A DNA stretch of 19,140 nt, taken from positions 1-19,140 of IMG/VR virus record IMGVR_UViG_2778261300_000006, one strand, 5' to 3'. The notes under the pieces are model-generated. The model was not told where the DNA came from, did not search any database, and worked only from the letters and a program-made list of their open reading frames with translations. Origin of the DNA: a virus (taxonomy: Duplodnaviria; Heunggongvirae; Uroviricota; Caudoviricetes). Below are positions 3,991-19,140 of the stretch, one piece after another (the stretch's first letter is position 1; each line of letters starts with the position of its first letter). The translations under genes were made by a program, and so were the position numbers.

Positions 3991-4341
3991 ATGAAAAACC
4001 TGAAAAAATTCATTCCCCCTGTTAAAAAACCTCGCCTCAGCGGCTGGCTGCTGACCTCAGTGCTGCTGCTGGGCACCATCGCTCTGGTCTCGCCACAGCA
4101 GTTGCCTGTTGTGATCTACAAGCTGGCACTCATCACGCTGGCAGCAGTGCTGGGTTACTGGCTTGACCGTTCGCTCTTCCCCAAAGCCCGTCCCGGTCAG
4201 TACCTGAAACATGACGACAGACTGATGGCTGAAGGGCGTTTCCCTGTGCAGACCGGCCTTCACCTTGTATTTTCTGCTGCGTTAATCCGCCGTGCACTGA
4301 TTGTTGCAGCGGTCTGTCTGGCTGTGGCAACAGGACTGTGA
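3991..4341 (+). CDS. Holin-like small membrane protein (2-3 predicted TM segments)
   Basis: ATG at 3991 with RBS GAGGAG at 3979..3984. 116 aa with hydrophobic stretches WLLTSVLLLGTIALV, VVIYKLALITLAAVLGYWL and ALIRRALIVAAVCLAVATGL. Stop overlaps the start region of the downstream lysis gene. Confidence 0.5.
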   Translation: MKNLKKFIPPVKKPRLSGWLLTSVLLLGTIALVSPQQLPVVIYKLALITLAAVLGYWLDRSLFPKARPGQYLKHDDRLMAEGRFPVQTGLHLVFSAALIRRALIVAAVCLAVATGL

Positions 4342-4343
4342 CC

Positions 4344-4886
4344 ATGAACTGGCCTCAAATCACCCTCATTATTCTGTTCGCCTTTGGTCTGGGCGTAACC
4401 GCCATCAGGCACGGAGAACCACGTAACGATAAATACAGCTTCTGGTGGCAGCTTGCTGGCAACCTGGTGATTGTCTGGCTGCTCTGGTGTGGCGGCTTCT
4501 TCAGTCAGGCCCGCGCAGCGCAGCCTCCGCAGGCTGCGCTGCAGTATCGCGATGATGTGATCCGTAATGCCCGGCTTGAATGGGGACTGTCTGCGCCGGT
4601 GGCCGATTTCGCCGCGCAACTGCATCAGGAAAGCGGCTGGCGACCTGATGCGGTCTCGCCGGCTGGCGCTCAGGGACTGGCGCAGTTCATGCCTGCCACT
4701 GCCGACTGGATAAGCCAGTTGATACCGATGCTGAGCAGTCGTGAGCCGTTTAATCCTGCATGGGCTATCCGGGCGCTGGTCAGCTATGACCGCTGGCTGT
4801 GGCAGCGCGTAAGCGCCGCCAACGACTGCGAGCGTATGGCCATGACACTGTCGGGCTATAACGGTGGTCTACACCCTGCGCCGTAA
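4344..4886 (+). CDS. Signal-anchored lytic transglycosylase (endolysin-like, SLT domain), apparently truncated or frameshifted
   Basis: N-terminal hydrophobic segment (WPQITLIILFAFGLGVTAI) followed by the family-1 SLT signature ...HQESGWRPDAVSPAGAQGLAQFMPATADWI... and YNGG. The ORF stops right after the YNGG motif; see the 4891..5016 feature. Confidence 0.6.
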   Translation: MNWPQITLIILFAFGLGVTAIRHGEPRNDKYSFWWQLAGNLVIVWLLWCGGFFSQARAAQPPQAALQYRDDVIRNARLEWGLSAPVADFAAQLHQESGWRPDAVSPAGAQGLAQFMPATADWISQLIPMLSSREPFNPAWAIRALVSYDRWLWQRVSAANDCERMAMTLSGYNGGLHPAP

Positions 4887-6276: not shown

Positions 6277-6527
6277 TGAAAGAATACCGCTATTCCGGCC
6301 CGGCCAGCGGCGTCACGCTGTCGGACGGAACCGAAATCCTGCTCTGGCCGGGGAAGACGGTTTCCCTGCCGGAGGAGCATGAATACGTGAAGGTACTGGT
6401 GGCGCTGAAGCATCTGACGCCGGTACCAGAAGATACTAAACCCGCCGTCACACCGGCTGTGCAGTCACCAAAGCGCAGAAGCAGCAGTGACAGCGAAGTG
6501 AAAACGGAGGACTCCCATGGCAGCTAA
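6276..6527 (+). CDS. Small protein with a disordered, charged C-terminus (Mu gp38-like position)
   Basis: ATG at 6276 overlaps the upstream TGA. 83 aa. The 3' end overlaps the sheath gene start by 11 nt. Confidence 0.4.
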   Translation: MKEYRYSGPASGVTLSDGTEILLWPGKTVSLPEEHEYVKVLVALKHLTPVPEDTKPAVTPAVQSPKRRSSSDSEVKTEDSHGS

Positions 6528-7944
6528 CTATCTGCATGGCGTCGAAACCATTGAGGTGGAAAACGGAGCCCGCCCGGTTAAAACGGTGAAATCTGCCGTT
6601 ATTGGCCTGATTGGTACCGCCCCGATGGGGGATGTCAATACGCTGGTACAGTGCCTGTCTGAGAAAGACGCTGCGGCATTTGGCAGCCAGTTCACCGGCT
6701 TTACCATTCCGCAGGCGCTGGATGCGATTTATGACCATGGTGCAGGCACCGTTCTGGTCATTAACGTACTCGATCCGTCTGTGCATAAAACCGCTGTGGT
6801 CAGTGAGAATGTGTCGTTCGACAAGGCGACAGGCAGAGCCCGGCTGGCTAATCCGGTGGTCGCGCAGCTGGTACTGAAACCGGACAGCGACGGTCAGCCT
6901 TATGTTGAAGGTCAGGACTACTCGCTTGATGCACAGACCGGGGTGATTACTAACCTGGGTAAAAGCATTGCTGCAGATGCAACGGTGAAGGCCAGCTATA
7001 ACTATGCTGATCCGACCAAAGTCACCCCGGCTGATATCATCGGTACCGTTAACGCTGCAGGCAACCGTACCGGCATGAAGCTGCTTAACGACAGTTTTAA
7101 CCTGTTTGGCTACTTCGCCAAAATCCTGATTGCTCCGGTATTCTGCACCCAGAACAGCGTCTCGGTTGAGCTTATCGCCATGGCTGAGAAACTGGGAGCA
7201 GTAACCTATATTGATGCGCCGGTTGGTACCACTTTTGCGCAGGCTCTGGCGGGACGTGGCCCGGAAGGCACCATTAACTTTAATACCAGCTCTGACCGTG
7301 TCCGCCTGTGCTACCCGCATGTGAAGGTATATGACCCGGTGACGAACACGGAGCGTCTGGAGCCACTGAGCCAGCGTGCGGCGGGCCTGCGTGCCAAAGT
7401 CGACCTGGACAAAGGGTACTGGTGGTCATCCTCCAATCAGGAAATTCTGGGGATCACCGGCGTGGAGCGCCAGCTGTCGGCAATGATTGACGATCCGCAG
7501 AGCGAGGTGAACCTGCTTAACGAACAGGGGATCACCACGGTATTCAGCAGTTACGGCAGCGGCCTTCGTCTGTGGGGTAACCGGACGGCAGCATGGCCAA
7601 CGGTCACCCATATGCGTAACTTTGAGAACGTTCGCCGCACCGGTGATGTGATCAACGAGTCCATTCGTTACTTCAGCCAGCAGTACATCGACATGCCGAT
7701 TACTCAGGCGCTGATTGATGCACTGACGGAGTCGGTCAACGCCTACGGTCGCAAAATGACTGGTGATGGTGCGGTACTGGGCTTCCGTTGCTGGTTTGAT
7801 CCGGCCCGCAATCCGGAGACGGAGCTGGCCGCCGGGCACCTGTTGCTGAGCTACAAATATACGCCACCACCGCCGCTGGAGCGACTGACGTTTGAGACTG
7901 AAATCACCTCGGAATACCTGTTAACCCTGAAAGGGGGCAACTGA
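6517..7944 (+). CDS. Contractile tail sheath protein
   Basis: 475 aa with RBS GGAGG 6 nt upstream. Size and position are right for a myovirus sheath, and it is followed immediately by a tube-sized gene. Sequence is reminiscent of Mu L / P2 FI-type sheath proteins. Confidence 0.85.
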   Translation: MAANYLHGVETIEVENGARPVKTVKSAVIGLIGTAPMGDVNTLVQCLSEKDAAAFGSQFTGFTIPQALDAIYDHGAGTVLVINVLDPSVHKTAVVSENVSFDKATGRARLANPVVAQLVLKPDSDGQPYVEGQDYSLDAQTGVITNLGKSIAADATVKASYNYADPTKVTPADIIGTVNAAGNRTGMKLLNDSFNLFGYFAKILIAPVFCTQNSVSVELIAMAEKLGAVTYIDAPVGTTFAQALAGRGPEGTINFNTSSDRVRLCYPHVKVYDPVTNTERLEPLSQRAAGLRAKVDLDKGYWWSSSNQEILGITGVERQLSAMIDDPQSEVNLLNEQGITTVFSSYGSGLRLWGNRTAAWPTVTHMRNFENVRRTGDVINESIRYFSQQYIDMPITQALIDALTESVNAYGRKMTGDGAVLGFRCWFDPARNPETELAAGHLLLSYKYTPPPPLERLTFETEITSEYLLTLKGGN

Positions 7945-9357: not shown

Positions 9358-11823
9358 GTGGCCAGTGAATTTTCAGTCGGCGTCATTATTGGCGGCATTG
9401 TCGGGAGCAGCTTCCGCTCAGCCGTCAGTGGCACCCGACGCGCCCTTGATTCCCTTGGTGATACCTCCCGCCGTCTGCAGGAACGCCAGAATGCCTTAAC
9501 CCGGGCAACAGAACGTTATGGTCAACTGGGTTCTTCCCGGATGCAGCATCTCAACAGCGAGTTGCTGCGGGTAAGCCGCACCATGGAGCAAATTGAACGT
9601 CAGCAGCGCCGTCTGTCAGCAGTATCAGCCACCGGTGATGCGTTGAAGGCTAACCGCCTGGCGCTCTATGGTCAGGGTGCAGAAACCTATGCTATTGGCA
9701 GAACGCTGGGCGCACCGGTCATGGCCTCGGTTAAACAATATGCCTCGTTTGAATCACAGTTGCGGGATATCAGTGTCACAGGAGACCTGGATGCAAAACA
9801 GGAACGTGCAATTGGCCAGGCTATCAGACAGGCCTCGCTGAAGGTTAACCAACTGCAGGAGTCTCTGTTAGGGGGAGTCGGACAATTAGTTGCTGATGGT
9901 ATGGCCCCCGAACGGGCAGCAACGTTTGCAGAGATGCTTGGAAAGACCGCTACAGCAACCAAAGCCGATATGACCGACCTTGCCAAAATGACTTATGCCT
10001 TCAGCGATGCACTCAGAATCACTGATGCGAAAGAACTTGAACAGGCGTTTGGTATTGCGGCAACAGGAGCCAAACTTGGGTCATTTGAGCTGAAGGATAT
10101 GGCAAAAGCATTACCCGGTATGGCTAAAGCCTTCGCTGCTCGTGGTATTTATGGAAAAGATGCGATTACCCAGATTGTTGCCAGTCTGGAGGTCGGTAAA
10201 GGTAGTGGCTCTGCAGAGGAAGCGGTCACCAATATGTCCAACTGGCTGGCAGCAATGGGCCGCGGAGATACCATCCAGAAATATGCTAAAGCCGGGGTGG
10301 ATTACCAGGGGTCAATGCAGAATTACGTCGCTCAGGGTTTTTCGCAGTACGAAGCTTCACTGATGATTGCCAACCGTTTTATCGACAGTAAAGGCAAAGC
10401 GTTCTTGCAGCAATGGAAAGCTGCAGGAGCAAGAGGCGATCAGGAAGGTCAGCAGAAACTCATGGAGTCATTTGGTCTGGCTGAGGTCTTTACCGATATT
10501 CAGACTGTCAACCATTTACTGTCAATGCGACAGGGCTGGGATAAATACCTTTCCAGTAAGCAGGAAATGAATACTCCGGCTGCAATGTCTACCCTGGATA
10601 AGGATGCTGCAAAGCAGAATGATACGCTTGAAGGTCGCTGGCGCAGAATGCAGATCGGCTTTAATGATTCTGCTATCAGCATCGGGCAATCCTTGCGTCC
10701 GGCTTTGCTCCAGTTGGGTGAAACATTTATTCCTTTAATGGACAGTGTTGGCAAATGGATAGCGGCAAATCCGCAGCTCGTCAGCAGCACCATAAAGGTT
10801 GTGGGCGCATTACTCGCTTTCAGGATGGCCACTATCGGTCTCAAGCTTGGGCTGAATCTCCTTCTTTCCCCCTTTGTAAGCGTCTGGAAAAATGCTGTTT
10901 TACTTCGGGCCAACTGGCTTCGTCTGACGCTCGCACTGGGGGAAGGCGGTAAACTCCGCTGGCTGGTGACAGGCTTTGGTGCTGTCGCCAGAGGAGCCAG
11001 AACACTGGGTGGTGTGCTCTCAGGGGGGCTGGTTCGCGGAATTATGAGCGCCGGGCGTGCCGTTCTCTGGATTGGCCGGGCGCTGCTGATGAATCCCATC
11101 GGTCTCGTTATCACCGCCGTCGCGGCAGCAGCTTACCTTATCTACCGCAACTGGGGCGCAGTCAGTAGCTGGTTTAAACAGCGCTGGGCTGACATTCAGG
11201 AAGCCTTTAACGGCGGCATCGTGGGAATTGGTAAACTGCTGGTTAACTGGTCTCCGGCTGGTCTGCTTTATAAAGCCTTTGCGGCTGCGCTGAAATATCT
11301 CGGCGTTGATCTGCCGGCGAAATTCACCGACTTCGGTGGTCATCTTATTGACGGGTTGATAAATGGCATCAGAAACAAATGGGCGTCACTCAAAACCAGC
11401 GTAACCGGAATGGGTGACAGCATCAGTGACTGGTTCAGCGAAAAGCTGGGCATCCATTCACCGAGTCGCGTGTTTATGGGCTTTGGTGACAATATCGCGC
11501 AGGGTGCCGCCATTGGCCTGCAACGGACCACTCCGCTTGCTGCACTGGCCGGGCAGCGCCTGGCCGCTGAAATGACACCGGATGTTCCCCGTATCCCGTC
11601 GCCGGAAATCATGGCTGCCGGATATTCAGGCCGTGGCGCAACTGCAACCGGCGGTGGAGCGTCTGGCGGTATCCAGGTCAGCTTTAATCCTCAGTTTTTC
11701 CTCAATGGTAAGGAAACCGCAGCGCCTGCCGGGCTGGCTGGTGCCCTGAATATGAGCCTGCATGAGCTGGAAAAAATGCTGGAGCGTCTGCTGGCTCAGA
11801 AACAACGTAAGGAGTACAGCTGA
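9358..11823 (+). CDS. Tail tape measure protein
   Basis: 821 aa. GTG start with AGAGGA 8 nt upstream. Long helical N-terminal region, Gly/Ala-rich hydrophobic central segments and overall architecture typical of tape measure proteins. Confidence 0.85.
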   Translation: MASEFSVGVIIGGIVGSSFRSAVSGTRRALDSLGDTSRRLQERQNALTRATERYGQLGSSRMQHLNSELLRVSRTMEQIERQQRRLSAVSATGDALKANRLALYGQGAETYAIGRTLGAPVMASVKQYASFESQLRDISVTGDLDAKQERAIGQAIRQASLKVNQLQESLLGGVGQLVADGMAPERAATFAEMLGKTATATKADMTDLAKMTYAFSDALRITDAKELEQAFGIAATGAKLGSFELKDMAKALPGMAKAFAARGIYGKDAITQIVASLEVGKGSGSAEEAVTNMSNWLAAMGRGDTIQKYAKAGVDYQGSMQNYVAQGFSQYEASLMIANRFIDSKGKAFLQQWKAAGARGDQEGQQKLMESFGLAEVFTDIQTVNHLLSMRQGWDKYLSSKQEMNTPAAMSTLDKDAAKQNDTLEGRWRRMQIGFNDSAISIGQSLRPALLQLGETFIPLMDSVGKWIAANPQLVSSTIKVVGALLAFRMATIGLKLGLNLLLSPFVSVWKNAVLLRANWLRLTLALGEGGKLRWLVTGFGAVARGARTLGGVLSGGLVRGIMSAGRAVLWIGRALLMNPIGLVITAVAAAAYLIYRNWGAVSSWFKQRWADIQEAFNGGIVGIGKLLVNWSPAGLLYKAFAAALKYLGVDLPAKFTDFGGHLIDGLINGIRNKWASLKTSVTGMGDSISDWFSEKLGIHSPSRVFMGFGDNIAQGAAIGLQRTTPLAALAGQRLAAEMTPDVPRIPSPEIMAAGYSGRGATATGGGASGGIQVSFNPQFFLNGKETAAPAGLAGALNMSLHELEKMLERLLAQKQRKEYS

Positions 11824-12707: not shown

Positions 12708-12919
12708 TGTTTCTTGAACATATTACCCGTGACGGAGAGCGCTGGGATTCGCTGGCATGGCAGTACTACGGTGACCCGCTGGGCTATCCCCGGATTATTG
12801 CAGCCAATCCGCACGTGGCCATTACGCCGGTGCTGCCCTCCGGGGTGTTGTTACTGATCCCGGTTATTGAGGCTGAAGATGCCCGCACAGAAGAGGATGT
12901 TGCTCCATGGCTGAGATAA
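12707..12919 (+). CDS. Tail protein X-like (P2 gpX family)
   Basis: 70 aa. ATG overlaps the upstream stop, with GAGGAG 6 nt upstream. Pattern W..LAWQYYGDPLGY..IIAANP......LP.G..L.IP resembles the gpX / LysM-like family. Confidence 0.6.
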   Translation: MFLEHITRDGERWDSLAWQYYGDPLGYPRIIAANPHVAITPVLPSGVLLLIPVIEAEDARTEEDVAPWLR

Positions 12920-14061
12920 ACAGTACTGCGCAAGACGTATCAGCGTTAACCGGCGTCAGCGATGTGCTGACGCCGGTGTTCACTCTGTGGTATCTGCAGA
13001 AAAATATCACCTCTGATATCGCGCCTTATGTCACCCGTGTGACCTGGAGCGATAACATCAAAAATGAGTCCGATACCATTGAGGTGGAGCTGGATGACAC
13101 CGATGGTCGCTGGCTGGATAAGTGGTATCCGGGCAAGGGTGACACGCTGACGCTGAAAATGGGTTATCAGGGCGAGAAACTGCTGTCCTGCGGTACATTC
13201 TCAATAGACGAGATCGAAGTGAGTTCGCCCGCGTCCGTTGTCGCTATCCGTGGGGTGGCCACCTCGGTTAACAGTGCTCTGCGGACTAAATCCAGCCGTG
13301 GTTTTGAGAACACCACGCTGGCAGCTGTTGCGGGGCGGATTGCCAGAAAGCACCGACTGAAACTGGTGGGCAGCATTGAGTCCATCAAAATCGACCGGGT
13401 GACCCAGTATGCTGAAACCGACGTGGGTTTTCTGCGCCGGCTGGCCAGCGAGTATGGTTATGCAGTGAAAGTGGTCAGTGACCAGTTGATTTTTTCTCAT
13501 CTGGCCACACTGCGCAGTCAGGAGCCGGTCAGGCAGTTAAAACCGCAGGATGTGGCCCGCTTTTCCCTGCGTGACACCATCAACCGGGTCTATAAATCTG
13601 CAAAGGTAAAACACCAGAAAAGCAGCAGTAAAAAACTGATCGTCTACGAAGCTGATGGTGGTACCCGTGAAAGCGACAAAAAGCTCAAAGGTGGTAAGGT
13701 TACCAGCGCTGACTCACTTAAAGTTAACAGCCGTGTCAGCGACCCGGACAGTGCCCGGATTAAAGCGGATTCAGCACTGGCCAGACATAACGAATACCAG
13801 CAGAACGGCTCCCTGACGCTGACGGGAACGCCTCAACTGACAGCAGGCAACAAAATTGAACTGGTGGGCTTTGGACAGTTATCCGGTCCATGGCTGATAA
13901 TCACTGCCCGCCATGCGTTTGAGCGTAACAGCGGCTACACCACAGAGCTGGAAGTGGCACGGGGGCCAGTCACAAGAGGGAAAAAACAAAAAACTCAGAA
14001 ACTCACGGTTTATCACCCGGATGGCAGTACATCGACGGTGATTAAGGAGAAGAAAAAATGA
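12907..14061 (+). CDS. P2 gpD-like / Mu P-like tail protein (baseplate hub-type)
   Basis: 384 aa. Position between the gpX-like and spike genes. Lys-rich C-terminus. 3' end overlaps the next start (ATGA). Confidence 0.65.
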   Translation: MAEINSTAQDVSALTGVSDVLTPVFTLWYLQKNITSDIAPYVTRVTWSDNIKNESDTIEVELDDTDGRWLDKWYPGKGDTLTLKMGYQGEKLLSCGTFSIDEIEVSSPASVVAIRGVATSVNSALRTKSSRGFENTTLAAVAGRIARKHRLKLVGSIESIKIDRVTQYAETDVGFLRRLASEYGYAVKVVSDQLIFSHLATLRSQEPVRQLKPQDVARFSLRDTINRVYKSAKVKHQKSSSKKLIVYEADGGTRESDKKLKGGKVTSADSLKVNSRVSDPDSARIKADSALARHNEYQQNGSLTLTGTPQLTAGNKIELVGFGQLSGPWLIITARHAFERNSGYTTELEVARGPVTRGKKQKTQKLTVYHPDGSTSTVIKEKKK

Positions 14062-14641: not shown

Positions 14642-14989
14642 ATGAAAACGACCTCAGTATTCTGGCAACCAGCTCTGCAGGCTCCCGGCGAAATCGTCCG
14701 GGGGCTGGATGATATCCGGCAGTCCATCCAGATCATCCTGCGGACTCCCCGCGGCAGCGACCCGCATCGCCCGGAGTTCGGCAGCAATCTGCACCTTTAT
14801 ATCGACTGGCCTGTCGGCCGGGCCATTCCGCATGTGGTTCGCGAATCCGTCGATGCCATCAGGCGCTGGGAACCCCGCTGCCAGCTTATGTCGGTTAAAC
14901 CCGCCGTCGACGGCGAACATCTTACGCTCCGGGTGAGCTGGAAAGGCTCAGACGGACAACCCCGTACTCAGGAACTGCTATGGCGCTGA
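14642..14989 (+). CDS. Baseplate wedge protein (gpW / gp25-like)
   Basis: 115 aa. Pattern ...IRQSIQIILRTPRGSDPHRPEFGSNLHLYIDWP... is typical of the GPW_gp25 family. 3' end overlaps the J-like start. Confidence 0.75.
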   Translation: MKTTSVFWQPALQAPGEIVRGLDDIRQSIQIILRTPRGSDPHRPEFGSNLHLYIDWPVGRAIPHVVRESVDAIRRWEPRCQLMSVKPAVDGEHLTLRVSWKGSDGQPRTQELLWR

Positions 14990-16083
14990 CAGAACCCGAT
15001 TTTATTGAACGCGATGCCGATAAAATCACGGCAGAAATGATTGCGAAGTATGAAGCGGATACCGGAAAAACGCTGTACCCGGCACAGGCTGAACGTCTGC
15101 TGATTGACCTGTGGGCCTATCGCGAAATGCTGGTCAGGGTGGCAGTACAGGAGGCGGCGAAGCAGAATCTGGTCGCTTTTTCCCGTGAGCCGATGATTGA
15201 TTACCTCGGTGAACTGGTCGGTGTATACCGCCTTGCCGCGCAGCCTGCCACCACCACACTTCAGTTCTCTGTGGATGAGGCACTGGCCATTGATGTGCTG
15301 ATCCCGGCAGGCACCCGCGTCAGCGCTTCCGACAGTATTATTTTTGCCACCGATACAGACGTGGTGCTGAAGGCCGGATTGCTGCTGGTCAATGTCACGG
15401 CCACCTGTACCGAGCCGGGTACCGCTGGCAACGGCTGGCAACCGGCGCAGGTCAGTCAGTTACTCGATGAGATTGATAACATTGACCTGCTGGTGACCAA
15501 TCTGACGGCCAGCTCTGGCGGTTCAGAGCAGGAAGACGATGACCGGCTCCGGGAGCGTATCAGGCTGGCCCCGGAGTCATTCACCAATGCCGGAAGCCGT
15601 GGTGCATACCGTTTTCATGCTATGGGGGCGCATCCCGGCATTGTCGACGTTGCTGTTCTTTCTCCCGCTCCCGGCACTGTCGAGCTGTATCCGCTGCTCA
15701 GCACTGGTCTGCCGGACAGCAGTATCCTCACTCTGGTAGAGAGTTTCTGTTCTGACGAAAAAGTCAGACCACTCACTGATACCGTGCGGGCTAAAACACC
15801 TGTTCAGGTGGATTACACCATTGAAGCCAGGATTACGATCTATCGTGATCAGGATGCAAGGTTGGTAAAGGACAACGCTAACAGCGCCATACAGAACTGG
15901 GTGGCATCCCGTACCGCCACGCTGGGGCGCGATATTGTTCCCAGCCAGATTATCAGCGTGTTGTCCGTTTCCGGGGTGTACCAGGTCGAACTGGTGACAC
16001 CGGCACTGAGGGTGGTGGCAGAAAACGAATGGGCAAACTGTACGGCGATCACTCTTAACATGACCGGGGTGTCCGATGGCTAA
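14980..16083 (+). CDS. Baseplate J-like protein
   Basis: 367 aa with AGGA RBS. Position and size match gpJ / Mu gp47. Translationally coupled to both neighbours. Confidence 0.8.
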   Translation: MALTEPDFIERDADKITAEMIAKYEADTGKTLYPAQAERLLIDLWAYREMLVRVAVQEAAKQNLVAFSREPMIDYLGELVGVYRLAAQPATTTLQFSVDEALAIDVLIPAGTRVSASDSIIFATDTDVVLKAGLLLVNVTATCTEPGTAGNGWQPAQVSQLLDEIDNIDLLVTNLTASSGGSEQEDDDRLRERIRLAPESFTNAGSRGAYRFHAMGAHPGIVDVAVLSPAPGTVELYPLLSTGLPDSSILTLVESFCSDEKVRPLTDTVRAKTPVQVDYTIEARITIYRDQDARLVKDNANSAIQNWVASRTATLGRDIVPSQIISVLSVSGVYQVELVTPALRVVAENEWANCTAITLNMTGVSDG

Positions 16084-16654
16084 GGTGCTACAACTCCCGC
16101 CACCGCTTGAGGGTGATATCAGTCTCAGAACGCTGGGAAGACTGGCCGGACGGCTGGATAACATCGACCTGAGCGTACTGATGGTCGGTCTCGTCGATAT
16201 TGTCGACAGTTCCGCGCTGCCATGGCTTGGCGAGCAGTTCTCGCTGTTCGGCGATGGCTGGGAACTGGCGGAATCGGACGATGTACGCCGCATGCTTATC
16301 AAATCCGCTATCGAGCTACACCGCTATAAAGGAACACCGTGGTCAATCCGGGAAATTATCCGCCGTTTTGGCTTCGGCGAAGTGGATCTGATTGAAGGTA
16401 CGGGGCAGATTGGCTATGACGGCAGACACACGTACAACGGGCTTTTCGTCCATGGTGATGCACAAGCCTGGGCAGTCTATCGCGTCATCTTTCAACAACC
16501 CATCACTAACGATCAGGCGGCGCTGTTACGTCAGACGCTTGCTGCCTTTGCTCCGGCTCGCTGTCATCTGGCAAGTCTGGAATATCAGTCTGTCGCCATT
16601 CGATACAACAGTACTACCTGTTATGACGGTAGTTACAACCACGGGAGCAGTTAA
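16076..16654 (+). CDS. Baseplate/tail protein (P2 gpI-like, Mu gp48-like)
   Basis: 192 aa. ATG overlaps the J stop. Immediately upstream of the tail fiber gene. Confidence 0.7.
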   Translation: MAKVLQLPPPLEGDISLRTLGRLAGRLDNIDLSVLMVGLVDIVDSSALPWLGEQFSLFGDGWELAESDDVRRMLIKSAIELHRYKGTPWSIREIIRRFGFGEVDLIEGTGQIGYDGRHTYNGLFVHGDAQAWAVYRVIFQQPITNDQAALLRQTLAAFAPARCHLASLEYQSVAIRYNSTTCYDGSYNHGSS

Positions 16655-16656
16655 TT

Positions 16657-17622
16657 ATGGCAAATCTACCCGAAACCCCGCAGTGGGAAAGCGGCATCTA
16701 CCAGATTGAGGTCTCTGACCCCGTTCTGGGCGGACCTGACGGAATTTCTAACCGCCAGGCTAAACAACTGGCCAGCCGAACGTCATACCTCAAACAGAAG
16801 GTCGAAAAAAGCGGAACAGACCTGGCTGCACATATCGCGGCAGTTGACCCGCATACCCAGTACGCGACGAAAGCCAGTCCGACATTCACCGGCACACCAA
16901 CAGCACCTACACCTGCAAATGGTGATAACAGCAAAAAGCTGGCGACGACGGAGTTTGTGGCCAAAGCACTTGCGGCACTTGCAGGCAGCGCCCCTGAGAC
17001 ACTGGATACGCTTAAAGAGCTGGCTGACGCTCTCGGTAATGATCCAAACTTTGCGACTACGGTACTGAACAAGCTGGCGGAAAAGCTGGCTAAAGACCAG
17101 AACGGCGCAGATATTCCTGAGCCTGCGCTGTTTGTCAAAAACCTTGGTTTGGGGGAAGGCTCTGCACTGCCCGTTGGTGTGCCTGTTCCGTGGCCCTCAG
17201 CCACACCGCCAGCAGGGTGGCTGAAATGTAACGGAGCAGCATTTTCTTCTGAAATGTACCCCAAACTGGCAAAGGCTTACCCCGCGAATAAATTACCGGA
17301 TTTACGGGGTGAGTTTATTCGTGGCTGGGATGACGGGCGCGGGATTGATCCTGGTCGCCAGTTGCTTGGGTGGCAGAAAGGTACTTTGGTTGGTGGTAGA
17401 GATGACAATGATGCCGCAGTTGATATTTCATATATGAGTAACGGAAATAGTATTGATTACGGTGGCGATAAAACATTTTCAACGAATTACCGGAGTGATT
17501 ATTTATGGTATGCAATTCTGGGTAACGTCACTGGTCGTGCCAAAGCTGCTTTAAGTGGGTCCTTTTTTAATGTAACTCGTCCACGCAACATCGCCTTTAA
17601 CTACATTGTGAGAGCAGCATAG
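16657..17622 (+). CDS. Tail fiber protein: constant N-terminal part fused to variable C-terminal cassette 1 (tail-collar domain)
   Basis: 321 aa. The constant region contains the conserved fiber segment SPTFTGTPTAPTPANGDNSKKLATTEFVAKALAALAGSAPETLDTLKELADALGNDPNFATT (P2 gpH-like). The variable part begins at about 17146 with the tail-collar-type motif GWLKCNGAAFSSEMYPKLAKAYP...LPDLRGEF and ends ...RPRNIAFNYIVRAA. Confidence 0.8.
   Translation: MANLPETPQWESGIYQIEVSDPVLGGPDGISNRQAKQLASRTSYLKQKVEKSGTDLAAHIAAVDPHTQYATKASPTFTGTPTAPTPANGDNSKKLATTEFVAKALAALAGSAPETLDTLKELADALGNDPNFATTVLNKLAEKLAKDQNGADIPEPALFVKNLGLGEGSALPVGVPVPWPSATPPAGWLKCNGAAFSSEMYPKLAKAYPANKLPDLRGEFIRGWDDGRGIDPGRQLLGWQKGTLVGGRDDNDAAVDISYMSNGNSIDYGGDKTFSTNYRSDYLWYAILGNVTGRAKAALSGSFFNVTRPRNIAFNYIVRAA
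17132..17157. other. Putative Gin/Hin/Cin-type recombination crossover site A, at the constant/variable junction of the fiber gene
   Basis: ttgtcaaaaacc-tt-ggtttgggggaa: a 12+2+12 bp arrangement whose left half matches the recalled hix/gix half-site (TTCTTGAAAACC / TTCCTGTAAACC) at 9 of 12 positions. Homology with the downstream repeat copy starts exactly at the central dinucleotide. Confidence 0.5.
17144..17345 (+). repeat. Repeat copy A (5' conserved part of variable fiber cassette 1)
   Basis: About 200 bp nearly identical to 17628..17829 (direct) and to the reverse complement of 19035..19140 (inverted; truncated by the window end). Confidence 0.85.
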
Positions 17623-17641
17623 AAACGTTGGTTTGGGGGAA
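17616..17641. other. Putative crossover site B (direct orientation relative to site A)
   Basis: agcatagaaacg-tt-ggtttgggggaa: right half identical to site A, left half diverged and overlapping the stop codon of cassette 1. Confidence 0.4.
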
Positions 17642-17829
17642 GGCTCTGCACTGCCCGTTGGTGTGCCCGTTCCGTGGCCCTTAGCAACACCACCAACGGG
17701 CTGGCTGAAATGTAACGGTGCAGCATTTTCTTCTGAAATGTACCCCAAACTGGCAAAAGCCTACCCCGCGAATAAATTACCGGATTTACGCGGAGAATTT
17801 ATCCGTGGCTGGGATGATGGGCGAGGAAT
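17628..17829 (+). repeat. Repeat copy B (5' conserved part of silent cassette 2)
   Basis: Direct repeat of 17144..17345 with a few substitutions; the two copies diverge after ...GRGID. Confidence 0.85.
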
Positions 17830-18109
17830 TGATGCGGCACGCGCTTTATTGAGCATTCAAAACGGGATGTTGGAAAAACACCGCCATATTGTTGTAGCTA
17901 ACGATGGATATGACACAAAAGATGAATGGGAGTTGGCTACGATTTTCAAAAAAACATATACACAAGGCAGGGGGCTTGATGCCACAAATACAGGAGGGAG
18001 TTTGACTCCATCACCAACGCTTCATTCACGAGGAAGTATTGGTAACACAGGTGGTAGTGAAACCCGCCCCCGCAATATTGCATTTAACTATATCGTGAGG
18101 GCGGCTTAG
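17630..18109 (+). CDS. Silent alternative tail-fiber C-terminal cassette 2 (no own start codon)
   Basis: Open frame encoding GEGSALPVGVPVPWP...GWLKCNGAAFSSEMYPKLAKAYPANKLPDLRGEFIRGWDDGRGID, then a unique middle, then the conserved end ...RPRNIAFNYIVRAA. There is no ATG or RBS (the track start is TTG at 17633), so it would need to be joined to the constant region to be expressed. Confidence 0.55.
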   Translation, partial: GLGEGSALPVGVPVPWPLATPPTGWLKCNGAAFSSEMYPKLAKAYPANKLPDLRGEFIRGWDDGRGIDAARALLSIQNGMLEKHRHIVVANDGYDTKDEWELATIFKKTYTQGRGLDATNTGGSLTPSPTLHSRGSIGNTGGSETRPRNIAFNYIVRAA

Positions 18110-18115
18110 TTATAT

Positions 18116-18733
18116 TCAACTGGCTGCTGCCAGAGGCATTTCCGGCCAGTTGATATCCGGTGCAGTGCTGATGTCAGTCGCATTAAGCACATCTATGAAA
18201 TCAAGCACGGCGTTTAGTTTTTCCGTCTCCTGGGGCGTCAATCGGCGTCCGGCTCGTAGTTTGAGATTTATAAGCTCAACAGATGCCATTGCCTGTTCCT
18301 CAAGTTGCTGACGATGCGCTCCGGCAGCTTCCAGTTCTGCTGCGTGCTGTCGTCCCGCATCTGTCACCCAGGTCTCACCATCCCAGACATCATAGATAGT
18401 AGCTGGCTGTTTCACCGTCGTATCAGGAGGGTAATCTCCCGGTTGTGTGATTTGCACAGCGTTACCATTCTCTGTGCTGTAAACCGTTTCGCCTCTGTGG
18501 TCTGGAACATATTTCCAGATGTTCTGGTCGGTATCACGACAGACAGCGAAGCCGGGGCGTTTTTCTGGTGGCGCGTCAATGCATGAGTGAGCCGGAATTC
18601 CAACACCATAAGCGAGATACTCAACAGTGGCAGAGAGATATTCACGGTTTTCAGCATCGTAGTTATAAACGGTAATATCGCCTGCAGTTATAGCGATACC
18701 ATTCTGATCAAGTACTGCAGCAGCATTATTCAT
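18116..18733 (-). CDS. Tail fiber assembly chaperone (Mu U/U'-like)
   Basis: 205 aa. C-terminal ...INWPEMPLAAAS resembles the conserved C-terminus of Mu U / Tfa-type fiber assembly proteins (recall). ATG overlaps the stop of the inverted cassette 3 (TAATG). Confidence 0.75.
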   Translation of the reverse strand: MNNAAAVLDQNGIAITAGDITVYNYDAENREYLSATVEYLAYGVGIPAHSCIDAPPEKRPGFAVCRDTDQNIWKYVPDHRGETVYSTENGNAVQITQPGDYPPDTTVKQPATIYDVWDGETWVTDAGRQHAAELEAAGAHRQQLEEQAMASVELINLKLRAGRRLTPQETEKLNAVLDFIDVLNATDISTAPDINWPEMPLAAAS

Positions 18734-19140
18734 TAAGTAGCCCTTACAATATAGTTAAACGCAATATTACGGGGGCGGTTTTCCGTTCCTGTATTCCCTC
18801 CGTTGGCACCTAATCTATAAACACCACGAGTGCCAATAGCACGTAGTGAAGATGGAACTTTTACACCTGACTCATCTGTTTTAACAATCCCGCCATCACC
18901 GTATGTAGCCAGTATACCAGGGTTTGTTCCTGCACGGGTGCTATTTGCGGCAAGCCCTTCACCAGTCCATAACTCCATATAGTGAATATGATCTATAACC
19001 GAATGTGATTGTGCATTAAGCAAGGAACGCCCTGAATCAATTCCCCGCCCGTCATCCCAGCCGCGAATAAACTCACCCCGTAAATCCGGTAATTTATTCG
19101 CGGGGTAGGCTTTTGCCAGTTTGGGGTACATTTCAGAAGA
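18733..19140 (-). CDS. Inverted alternative tail-fiber C-terminal cassette 3 (partial; 5' end beyond window)
   Basis: Minus-strand frame encoding ...SSEMYPKLAKAYPANKLPDLRGEFIRGWDDGRGID-(unique middle)-...NRPRNIAFNYIVRAT. Open to the window edge. Followed by its own chaperone on the same strand. Confidence 0.65.
   Translation of the reverse strand, partial: SSEMYPKLAKAYPANKLPDLRGEFIRGWDDGRGIDSGRSLLNAQSHSVIDHIHYMELWTGEGLAANSTRAGTNPGILATYGDGGIVKTDESGVKVPSSLRAIGTRGVYRLGANGGNTGTENRPRNIAFNYIVRAT
19035..19140 (-). repeat. Repeat copy C (inverted; truncated by window end)
   Basis: The reverse complement matches 17730..17829 and 17246..17345. The inverted crossover site itself would lie about 85 bp beyond the window. 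Confidence 0.8.

Follow-up and report, generated by a model that had tools for sequence, protein, structure and literature searches.

A probable constant-side recombination site of a multiple DNA-inversion system in the tail-fibre gene of a P2-like prophage

The window (the whole stretch of viral DNA that was analysed, 19,140 nt) carries a contractile-tail module followed by a tail-fibre gene and a group of tail-fibre cassettes. The module contains genes for the sheath (6517-7944) and the tape measure (9358-11823), and a phage tail protein gene (12907-14058) that is assigned to the PHROG family 'tail protein' and whose equivalent coding sequence in Escherichia coli A31 is annotated as 'phage late control D family protein'. 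Two baseplate genes recognized by Pfam, Baseplate_J (P2 J-like, 14980-16083) and Tail_P2_I (P2 I-like, 16076-16654), lead up to the fibre gene. Upstream of the fibre gene the window and the A31 prophage (locus L001) differ at 7 of 5657 nt. Positions 768-2983, at the left end and ahead of an endolysin-like ORF (4338-4886) and of the tail genes, encode a 335-aa protein that matches the PHROG 'nucleoid associated protein' family and another of 401 aa whose function is unknown. A sister prophage (L003, L094 and L006; 8178-type) contains an 876-bp coding sequence with a PD-(D/E)XK nuclease domain (WP_001371051.1) between its baseplate V and W genes. This gene is absent from the window and from A31, and may be a moron or defence gene.

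The tail-fibre gene is listed as a single ORF on the plus strand (16657-17622) and consists of two parts. The constant 5' part (16657-17143) follows the J-like and I-like baseplate genes and is equal in E. coli strains A31, 2014C-3075 and 12089 regardless of the cassette that comes next. It is joined to cassette D (17146-17622, plus strand; stop codon 17620-17622), the currently expressed C-terminal tip, which contains a Collar domain (PF07484) and is identical to a minus-strand cassette of A31 (L001, 8243-8714). The two parts form an in-frame fusion of 321 aa. Cassette B (17630-18109) lies beyond it in direct orientation on the plus strand; it too encodes a Collar domain, has no start signals of its own and represents a silent alternative tip. 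In strain 2014C-3075 cassette B is fused directly to the constant part, giving an in-frame product of 322 aa. The 3' part of a third cassette, C (18733-19140, minus strand), is cut by the window end. It is a silent, inverted tip that falls within the region matching a rearranged A31 locus at 0 mismatches (see below), and it is tied to the other cassettes by inverted repeats (17245-17367 with 19018-19140, and 17729-17833 with 19036-19140). Five cassettes are all in frame with the constant part; the resulting fibres are 307-331 aa long and read ...PALFVKN|LGLGEGSALPVG... across the junction. Informative families for the fibre, cassette and tfa proteins came from Pfam but not from NCBIfam.

Between cassettes B and C lies a tail-fibre assembly (chaperone) gene, tfa (18116-18733, minus strand), which matches Caudo_TAP (PF02413, E = 9.6e-26) and is annotated as 'tail fiber assembly protein' in relatives. 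It is the only such gene in the array and is co-oriented with cassette C. The same arrangement, one Caudo_TAP gene per array of 3-6 cassettes and co-oriented only with cassette C, is found in the window and in loci L001, L093 and L092. In the window's present isomer the expressed fibre, formed from the constant part and cassette D, has no same-strand tfa downstream. Either the short Collar-type tips fold without tfa, or tfa is expressed independently. The silent cassettes (window 17633-18109, with equivalents in L001, L003 and L093) are called by PGAP as stand-alone 'phage tail protein' genes with a TTG start inside the right half of the site described below, and ORF calling of this style puts the start of cassette B at TTG 17633. 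It is unlikely that these coding sequences are genes in their own right.

The junction between the constant part and the first C-terminal cassette is occupied by a 26-base element on the plus strand, TTGTCAAAAACC-TT-GGTTTGGGGGAA (17132-17157), here called site 1, whose sequence and coordinates are exactly those given at first pass. In direct reading its left half (17132-17143), with which the constant part ends, is ttgtcaaaaacc, the core (17144-17145) is tt and the right half (17146-17157) is ggtttgggggaa. Compared as an inverted repeat, the directly read halves match at 8 of 12 positions, and both fit TTxxCxxAAACC towards the core, the pattern of the annotated gix, cix and pix sites. A second copy, site 2, lies on the same strand at 17616-17641 (AGCATAGAAACG-TT-GGTTTGGGGGAA, read as agcatagaaacg-tt-ggtttgggggaa), so that the two are direct repeats of each other. 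The 19-mer AAACCTTGGTTTGGGGGAA reaches from the inner left half through the core and right half; at three mismatches or fewer the window holds two occurrences of it, against 0.00 in 200 shuffles. As the first-pass annotation had described, site 2 shares its right half with site 1 and has a diverged left half that overlaps the stop codon of the first cassette. This left half is the 3' end of cassette D and contains its stop codon, TAG (17620-17622). While the right half of site 2 fits the family pattern, the left half retains only GAAACG, in which it resembles the pin-side site of e14 and the EC958 site Phi2_3prime.

The two copies head a direct repeat of 220 nt with 90% identity (17139-17358 with 17623-17842). 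It had been proposed at first pass that the homology between cassettes begins exactly at the central dinucleotide. Unbroken identity does run from the core T (17144 with 17628), but four of the five bases that precede it are also equal (AAAC, followed by C in one copy and G in the other), because they are part of the conserved half-site. The window contains no inverted partner for site 1, both copies being on the plus strand and the window ending at 19140, and no invertase or other recombinase gene is found within its 19,140 nt.

Comparison with annotated sites places the element in the Hin/Gin family. The gix, cixL, cixR and two pix sequences were taken from annotated records, and site 1 aligns in register with all of them: Mu gix (TTATCCAAAACC-TC-GGTTTACAGGAA), P1 cixL (CAATCCTAAACC-TT-GGTTTAAGAGAA, with the annotated crossover between the two T's), P1 cixR read from the outside in (TTATCCAATACC-TT-GGTTTAAGAGAA), e14 pix (CTCTCGAAAACC-TT-GGTTTGGGAGAA) and the pin-side e14 pix (TTTTCATAAACG-TT-GGTTTGGGAGAA). 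The central dinucleotide of site 1 (17144-17145) lies in the register AAACC-TT-GGTTT, as in cixL, and the TT core is present in 42 of 42 sites from 10 related loci. The hix half-site, which we take to be TTATCAAAAACC, differs by one base from the window's left half, TTGTCAAAAACC. At first pass the left half had been likened to hixL and gixL; the nearest matches, which share the TT core, are e14 pix and P1 cix, not hix or gix. Mu gix and Salmonella hix share the 12-2-12 architecture and the half-site family with site 1. Mu gix differs in its TC core and in belonging to a two-site system. The hix core is AA/TT, and that system likewise has two sites, with Hin controlling a promoter and not a fibre gene. 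The closest single-site match is e14 pix of E. coli K-12, which has the TT core and a right half that differs by one base. The e14 locus further resembles the array in carrying the AAACG variant on the invertase side and Collar-type fibre cassettes beside the pin gene; it differs in having two sites and two cassettes, each with its own tfa, whereas the arrays described here have up to 5-6 cassettes and a single tfa. P1 cix shares the AAACC-TT-GGTTT centre, but the P1 system is one of two sites, with a C segment of 4.2 kb and long S cassettes accompanied by U and U'. A tail-fibre site in prophage Phi2 of E. coli EC958 (GAGAGATAAACG-TT-GGTTTGGGGGAA) has been seen to invert in PacBio reads (PMC4134206). 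Its TT-GGTTTGGGGGAA is identical to that of the window and is followed by an imperfect inverted repeat of about 197 bp (PMC4134206), although its left halves differ from the window's and it bounds a simple two-site segment of 2067 bp (Forde et al. 2014, PMC4134206).

The genes and sites that the window lacks are found in its relatives. The A31 array contains five sites, two on the plus and three on the minus strand, all with the TT core and the right half GGTTTGGGGGAA; the three minus-strand sites are inverted partners of site 1. Just past the last site lies the gene for a 190-aa recombinase with Resolvase and HTH_7 domains. This protein shares 75% identity with Mu Gin (tblastn) and about 73% with a P1-like Cin, and matches the Gin structures 3uj3 and 4m6f (E = 1e-90). 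An intact invertase lies in this position, just outside the last site, beside all seven E. coli chromosomal arrays of this type that were examined (A31, 2014C-3075, 8178, DEF2, 12089, CFIAFB20190167 and MS20655). An enhancer is annotated at nt 19-90 of cin in the P1 record, and the corresponding 5' stretch of the invertase gene in the relatives matches it at 58 of 72 positions; as this stretch is coding sequence too, the match is weak evidence. The arrays vary in size, from the simple two-site version of 2014C-3075 (L002) to six sites in 12089. A31, with five sites and five cassettes, can reach 48 isomers, and the window shows two sites and three cassettes. A symmetric regex scan counts near-palindromic sites twice, and the site numbers do not come from it. 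In genome contigs of other Enterobacterales, a scan for the invertase returned mostly simple two-site segments with the same site family, which shows this family to be widespread. From the A31 isomer, the DNA beyond 19140 is predicted to contain, in order, the site of cassette C, cassette A (minus strand), a further site, cassette E (minus strand), AAGACGAAAACG-TT-GGTTTGGGGGAA (minus strand) and a 573-bp invertase gene on the plus strand.

Natural isomers of the array allow the recombination junctions to be mapped. Loci were segmented at the site cores, inversions were simulated for every pair of plus and minus sites, and the breakpoints were then slid to bound each exchange; the resulting paths are the shortest in-silico routes between isomers as compared, and do not represent observed events. 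After two core-to-core inversions the A31 locus agrees with window 16657-19140 at all 2484 nt (0 mismatches). No exact match to the arrangement of the window was present among 5,426 complete E. coli genomes. The first inversion pairs site 1 with an internal site on the minus strand, and the exchange falls between 17143|17144 and 17162|17163, corresponding to a permitted displacement of the crossover of -2 to +17. The second pairs two internal sites, one of which is site 2 of the window (AGCATAGAAACG), within a permitted interval of 66 nt. The sister prophage, which adjoins btsSR and yehRS, is carried by four mouse E. coli strains that are nearly isogenic (8178, DEF10, FEA3 and DEF2) and provides a further set of four isomers, all of the same 3651-bp region. 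DEF10 and FEA3 are each one inversion away from 8178 and DEF2 is three away, all core-to-core and with 0 mismatches. The DEF10 and FEA3 inversions pair an internal site (GGCATAGAAACG or AGCATGAAAACG) with the invertase-proximal site, and the breakpoint intervals in the sister prophage measure 20-31 nt with the core always inside. Apparently different arrangements in the 8178 assemblies H25, H34 and H35 were an artefact of joining BLAST pieces, and all three are the same.

For every exchange involving site 1 the left limit is immediately 5' of the core T (17144). The earlier proposal that recombination at the core exchanges the downstream sequence is in keeping with this, the isomers placing the exchange in a 20-nt interval that opens at the core. 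As a junction map these intervals start at the core but are no finer than about 20 nt, because the right halves and at least the next 5 nt are identical among cassettes. Cleavage at the TT itself would follow from homology to cix. Across the isomers, the left halves stay in place at the end of the constant gene, at the cassette 3' ends and in the invertase-proximal DNA, and the right halves travel with the cassettes. A silent cassette accordingly has a right half-site at its 5' end and, at its 3' end, a stop codon and AAACG that form the left half of the next site. As the right halves move with the cassettes, after each inversion it is another cassette that continues the frame at ...FVKN|LGLGEG. 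Around the central B-tfa-C unit the modules keep to a fixed strand, always plus on its left side and always minus on its right. The matches to annotated cix, gix, pix and EC958 sites, the Gin-like invertase beside the relatives' arrays and the isomer junctions together uphold the first-pass identification of a 12-2-12 Hin/Gin-family crossover site at the constant/variable junction.

The same junctions bear on whether the rearrangements could instead be the work of RecA, through homologous recombination in the conserved 5' parts that the cassettes share, the 26-bp motif then being no more than the edge of the homology. The cassettes do share about 200 nt at approximately 90% identity in both direct and inverted orientation, their 5' parts are mosaic between strains so that gene conversion evidently occurs, and the 66-nt interval of the second A31 inversion would be compatible with such a process, as would the 41-nt interval of a 484-bp module difference described below. 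Against RecA, however, six of the seven inferred inversions fall in a tract of 19-31 nt at the site, and identical tracts of 50-128 nt further downstream were left unused. At 19 nt, the tract at which the site-1 event of A31 took place seems too short for efficient RecA exchange, given the minimal homology that this requires. In addition, the motif agrees with proven invertase sites, and a Gin-like invertase always lies beside it. Homologous recombination as the source of the inversions is consequently considered very unlikely.

It might also be supposed that the motif has no function at the DNA level and is conserved only for the protein segment that it encodes (...KNLGLGEG..., a hinge preceding the Collar domain). 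Site 1 is coding throughout and the right half encodes the start of every cassette. However, AAAAC(G)-TT-GGTTTGGGGGAA persists even with a non-coding left half, both after stop codons and in the intergenic DNA by the invertase, and AAAC(G/C)-TT is likewise retained at these positions. With the TT core present in every site of the set and the rearrangement junctions coinciding with the motif, a purely coding explanation is the least credible of those considered and can be given almost no weight.

The first-pass annotation had suggested that site 2 may be weaker or non-functional. Loss of function is contradicted by the second A31 inversion, in which site 2 is one partner, and by the equivalent internal sites in 8178, DEF10 and FEA3, where the stop-codon-bearing left halves GGCATAGAAACG and AGCATGAAAACG account for single inversions between near-isogenic strains. 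To judge from these comparisons of sequence, internal sites, site 2 included, appear to be active even though their left half is degenerate and overlaps a stop codon.

Taken together, site 1 very probably serves as the recombination site on the constant side of a multiple DNA-inversion system, by which the receptor-binding C-terminal tip of a prophage tail fibre is switched. The array of the window is a p15B-Min-like multiple-inversion array on a P2-like tail module, with a Din-family crossover site. By analogy with Gin, Hin and Cin, a dimer of a Gin-like serine invertase, which would be encoded just past the far end of the array and outside the window as in the relatives, would bind each 26-bp site. 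Two inverted sites would then come together, presumably at a Fis-bound enhancer within the first part of the invertase gene, its 5' end. All four strands would be cut with a 2-nt stagger at the TT (17144-17145), the likely point of staggered cleavage and strand exchange, before half of the complex turns by 180 degrees and the ends are rejoined. Since the TT core is asymmetric, only inverted pairs would be expected to ligate, so that cassette D would not normally be deleted between the two direct copies in the window.

An alternative is that site 1 is a relic and that the array is frozen in the genome from which the window derives, for instance through an invertase that has been lost or is inactive past the window end. 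No invertase is visible in the window, and truncated invertases occur in related elements, namely EC958 Phi4 (PMC4134206) and P1-like plasmids. On the other hand, the window and the A31 array are isomers with 0 mismatches, implying very recent inversion, and the invertases at all seven E. coli chromosomal arrays examined are intact. Din-family invertases can moreover act in trans (discussed in PMC4134206). A frozen array is thus held to be very improbable, and an active inversion system remains the preferred reading.

Among known systems the overall organization most resembles the p15B Min multiple-inversion system, reportedly described in 1990 by Sandmeier et al. (PNAS 87:1109) and by Iida et al. 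We take that system to comprise a single constant 5' fibre part, a set of alternative 3' cassettes and, at the end, one Din-family invertase, with 26-bp sites that number more than two and face both ways; the likeness is drawn with the arrays of P1-like phage-plasmids as proxies. The R64-type shufflon, with its Rci tyrosine recombinase and 19-bp sfx repeats, was rejected as a model, as the enzyme here is a serine recombinase of the Resolvase/HTH_7 type acting on 26-bp Din-type sites; only the multi-cassette logic is shared. The arrays of P1-like elements (L092, Salmonella Typhi plasmid ph681355, 6058-13061; L010, phage vB_EcoM-673R5, 3957-6934) are closely related. Their cassettes are about 85-93% identical to those of the window at the nucleotide level, the TT core is conserved, the invertase is 94% identical, and internal left halves of the GGCATnAAAACG type and the invertase-proximal left half AAGAC(T/G)AAAACG are shared as well. 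The constant-side left half is different, TTCTTAATTACC in place of TTGTCAAAAACC. Furthermore, the window's array sits on the P2-like baseplate/fibre module of a chromosomal prophage and not on the P1 S gene, the P1-like arrays being joined to a different constant fibre gene. The array and its invertase thus form a module common to P1-like and P2-like tails, with homology from the site onward. In ph681355 an ISEcp1-blaCTX-M-15 unit is found inside the cassette array.

Beyond inversion, the arrays differ in their content of modules. Removing the 484-bp module 17144-17627, which lies between the direct sites, converts the window into the 2014C-3075 locus with 1 mismatch in 2000 nt, and the junction of this deletion is confined to the stretch from the core to +40. 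Similarly, once modules A and D+E are taken out, the A31 locus equals that of 2014C-3075, at 1 mismatch in 2740 nt. These differences indicate that cassette modules have been lost or gained between direct sites, either by rare invertase-mediated deletion or by homologous recombination. The internal sites turn every cassette into a self-contained module, and a broader proposal is that the invertase might be able to move such modules and also to delete or capture them between direct-repeat sites and across replicons. Such mobility would explain both the module loss in 2014C-3075 and the presence of the same array and invertase on P1-like and P2-like elements, and if true it would mean that a Din invertase drives the gain, loss and horizontal exchange of cassettes in addition to their inversion; nevertheless we regard it as rather unlikely. 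Cassettes of type A, which share the same variable 3' part, are patterned differently by strain over their first 200 nt or so (L003 from 4141 compared with L001 from 6145). The mosaic 5' parts point to gene conversion or mosaicism among cassettes on top of site-specific inversion.

The inversion of tail-fibre genes has been a textbook mechanism since the 1980s-90s, so that the mechanism itself is already known and holds little surprise; what is of use is a map that locates sites and cassettes at nucleotide level, along with the apparent activity of the internal sites. With at least three cassettes in the window and five in A31, the prophage can present several receptor-binding tips from one fibre gene. 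This bears on host-range prediction and on annotation, in which the silent cassettes are routinely called as separate genes. Genome assemblies also break or differ at the array locus. In draft genomes, many contigs stop within about 100-200 nt of the invertase gene (L013, L018, L021, L022, L024, L027, L029, L030 and others), which is what assemblers do when a culture mixes orientations of the neighbouring segment.
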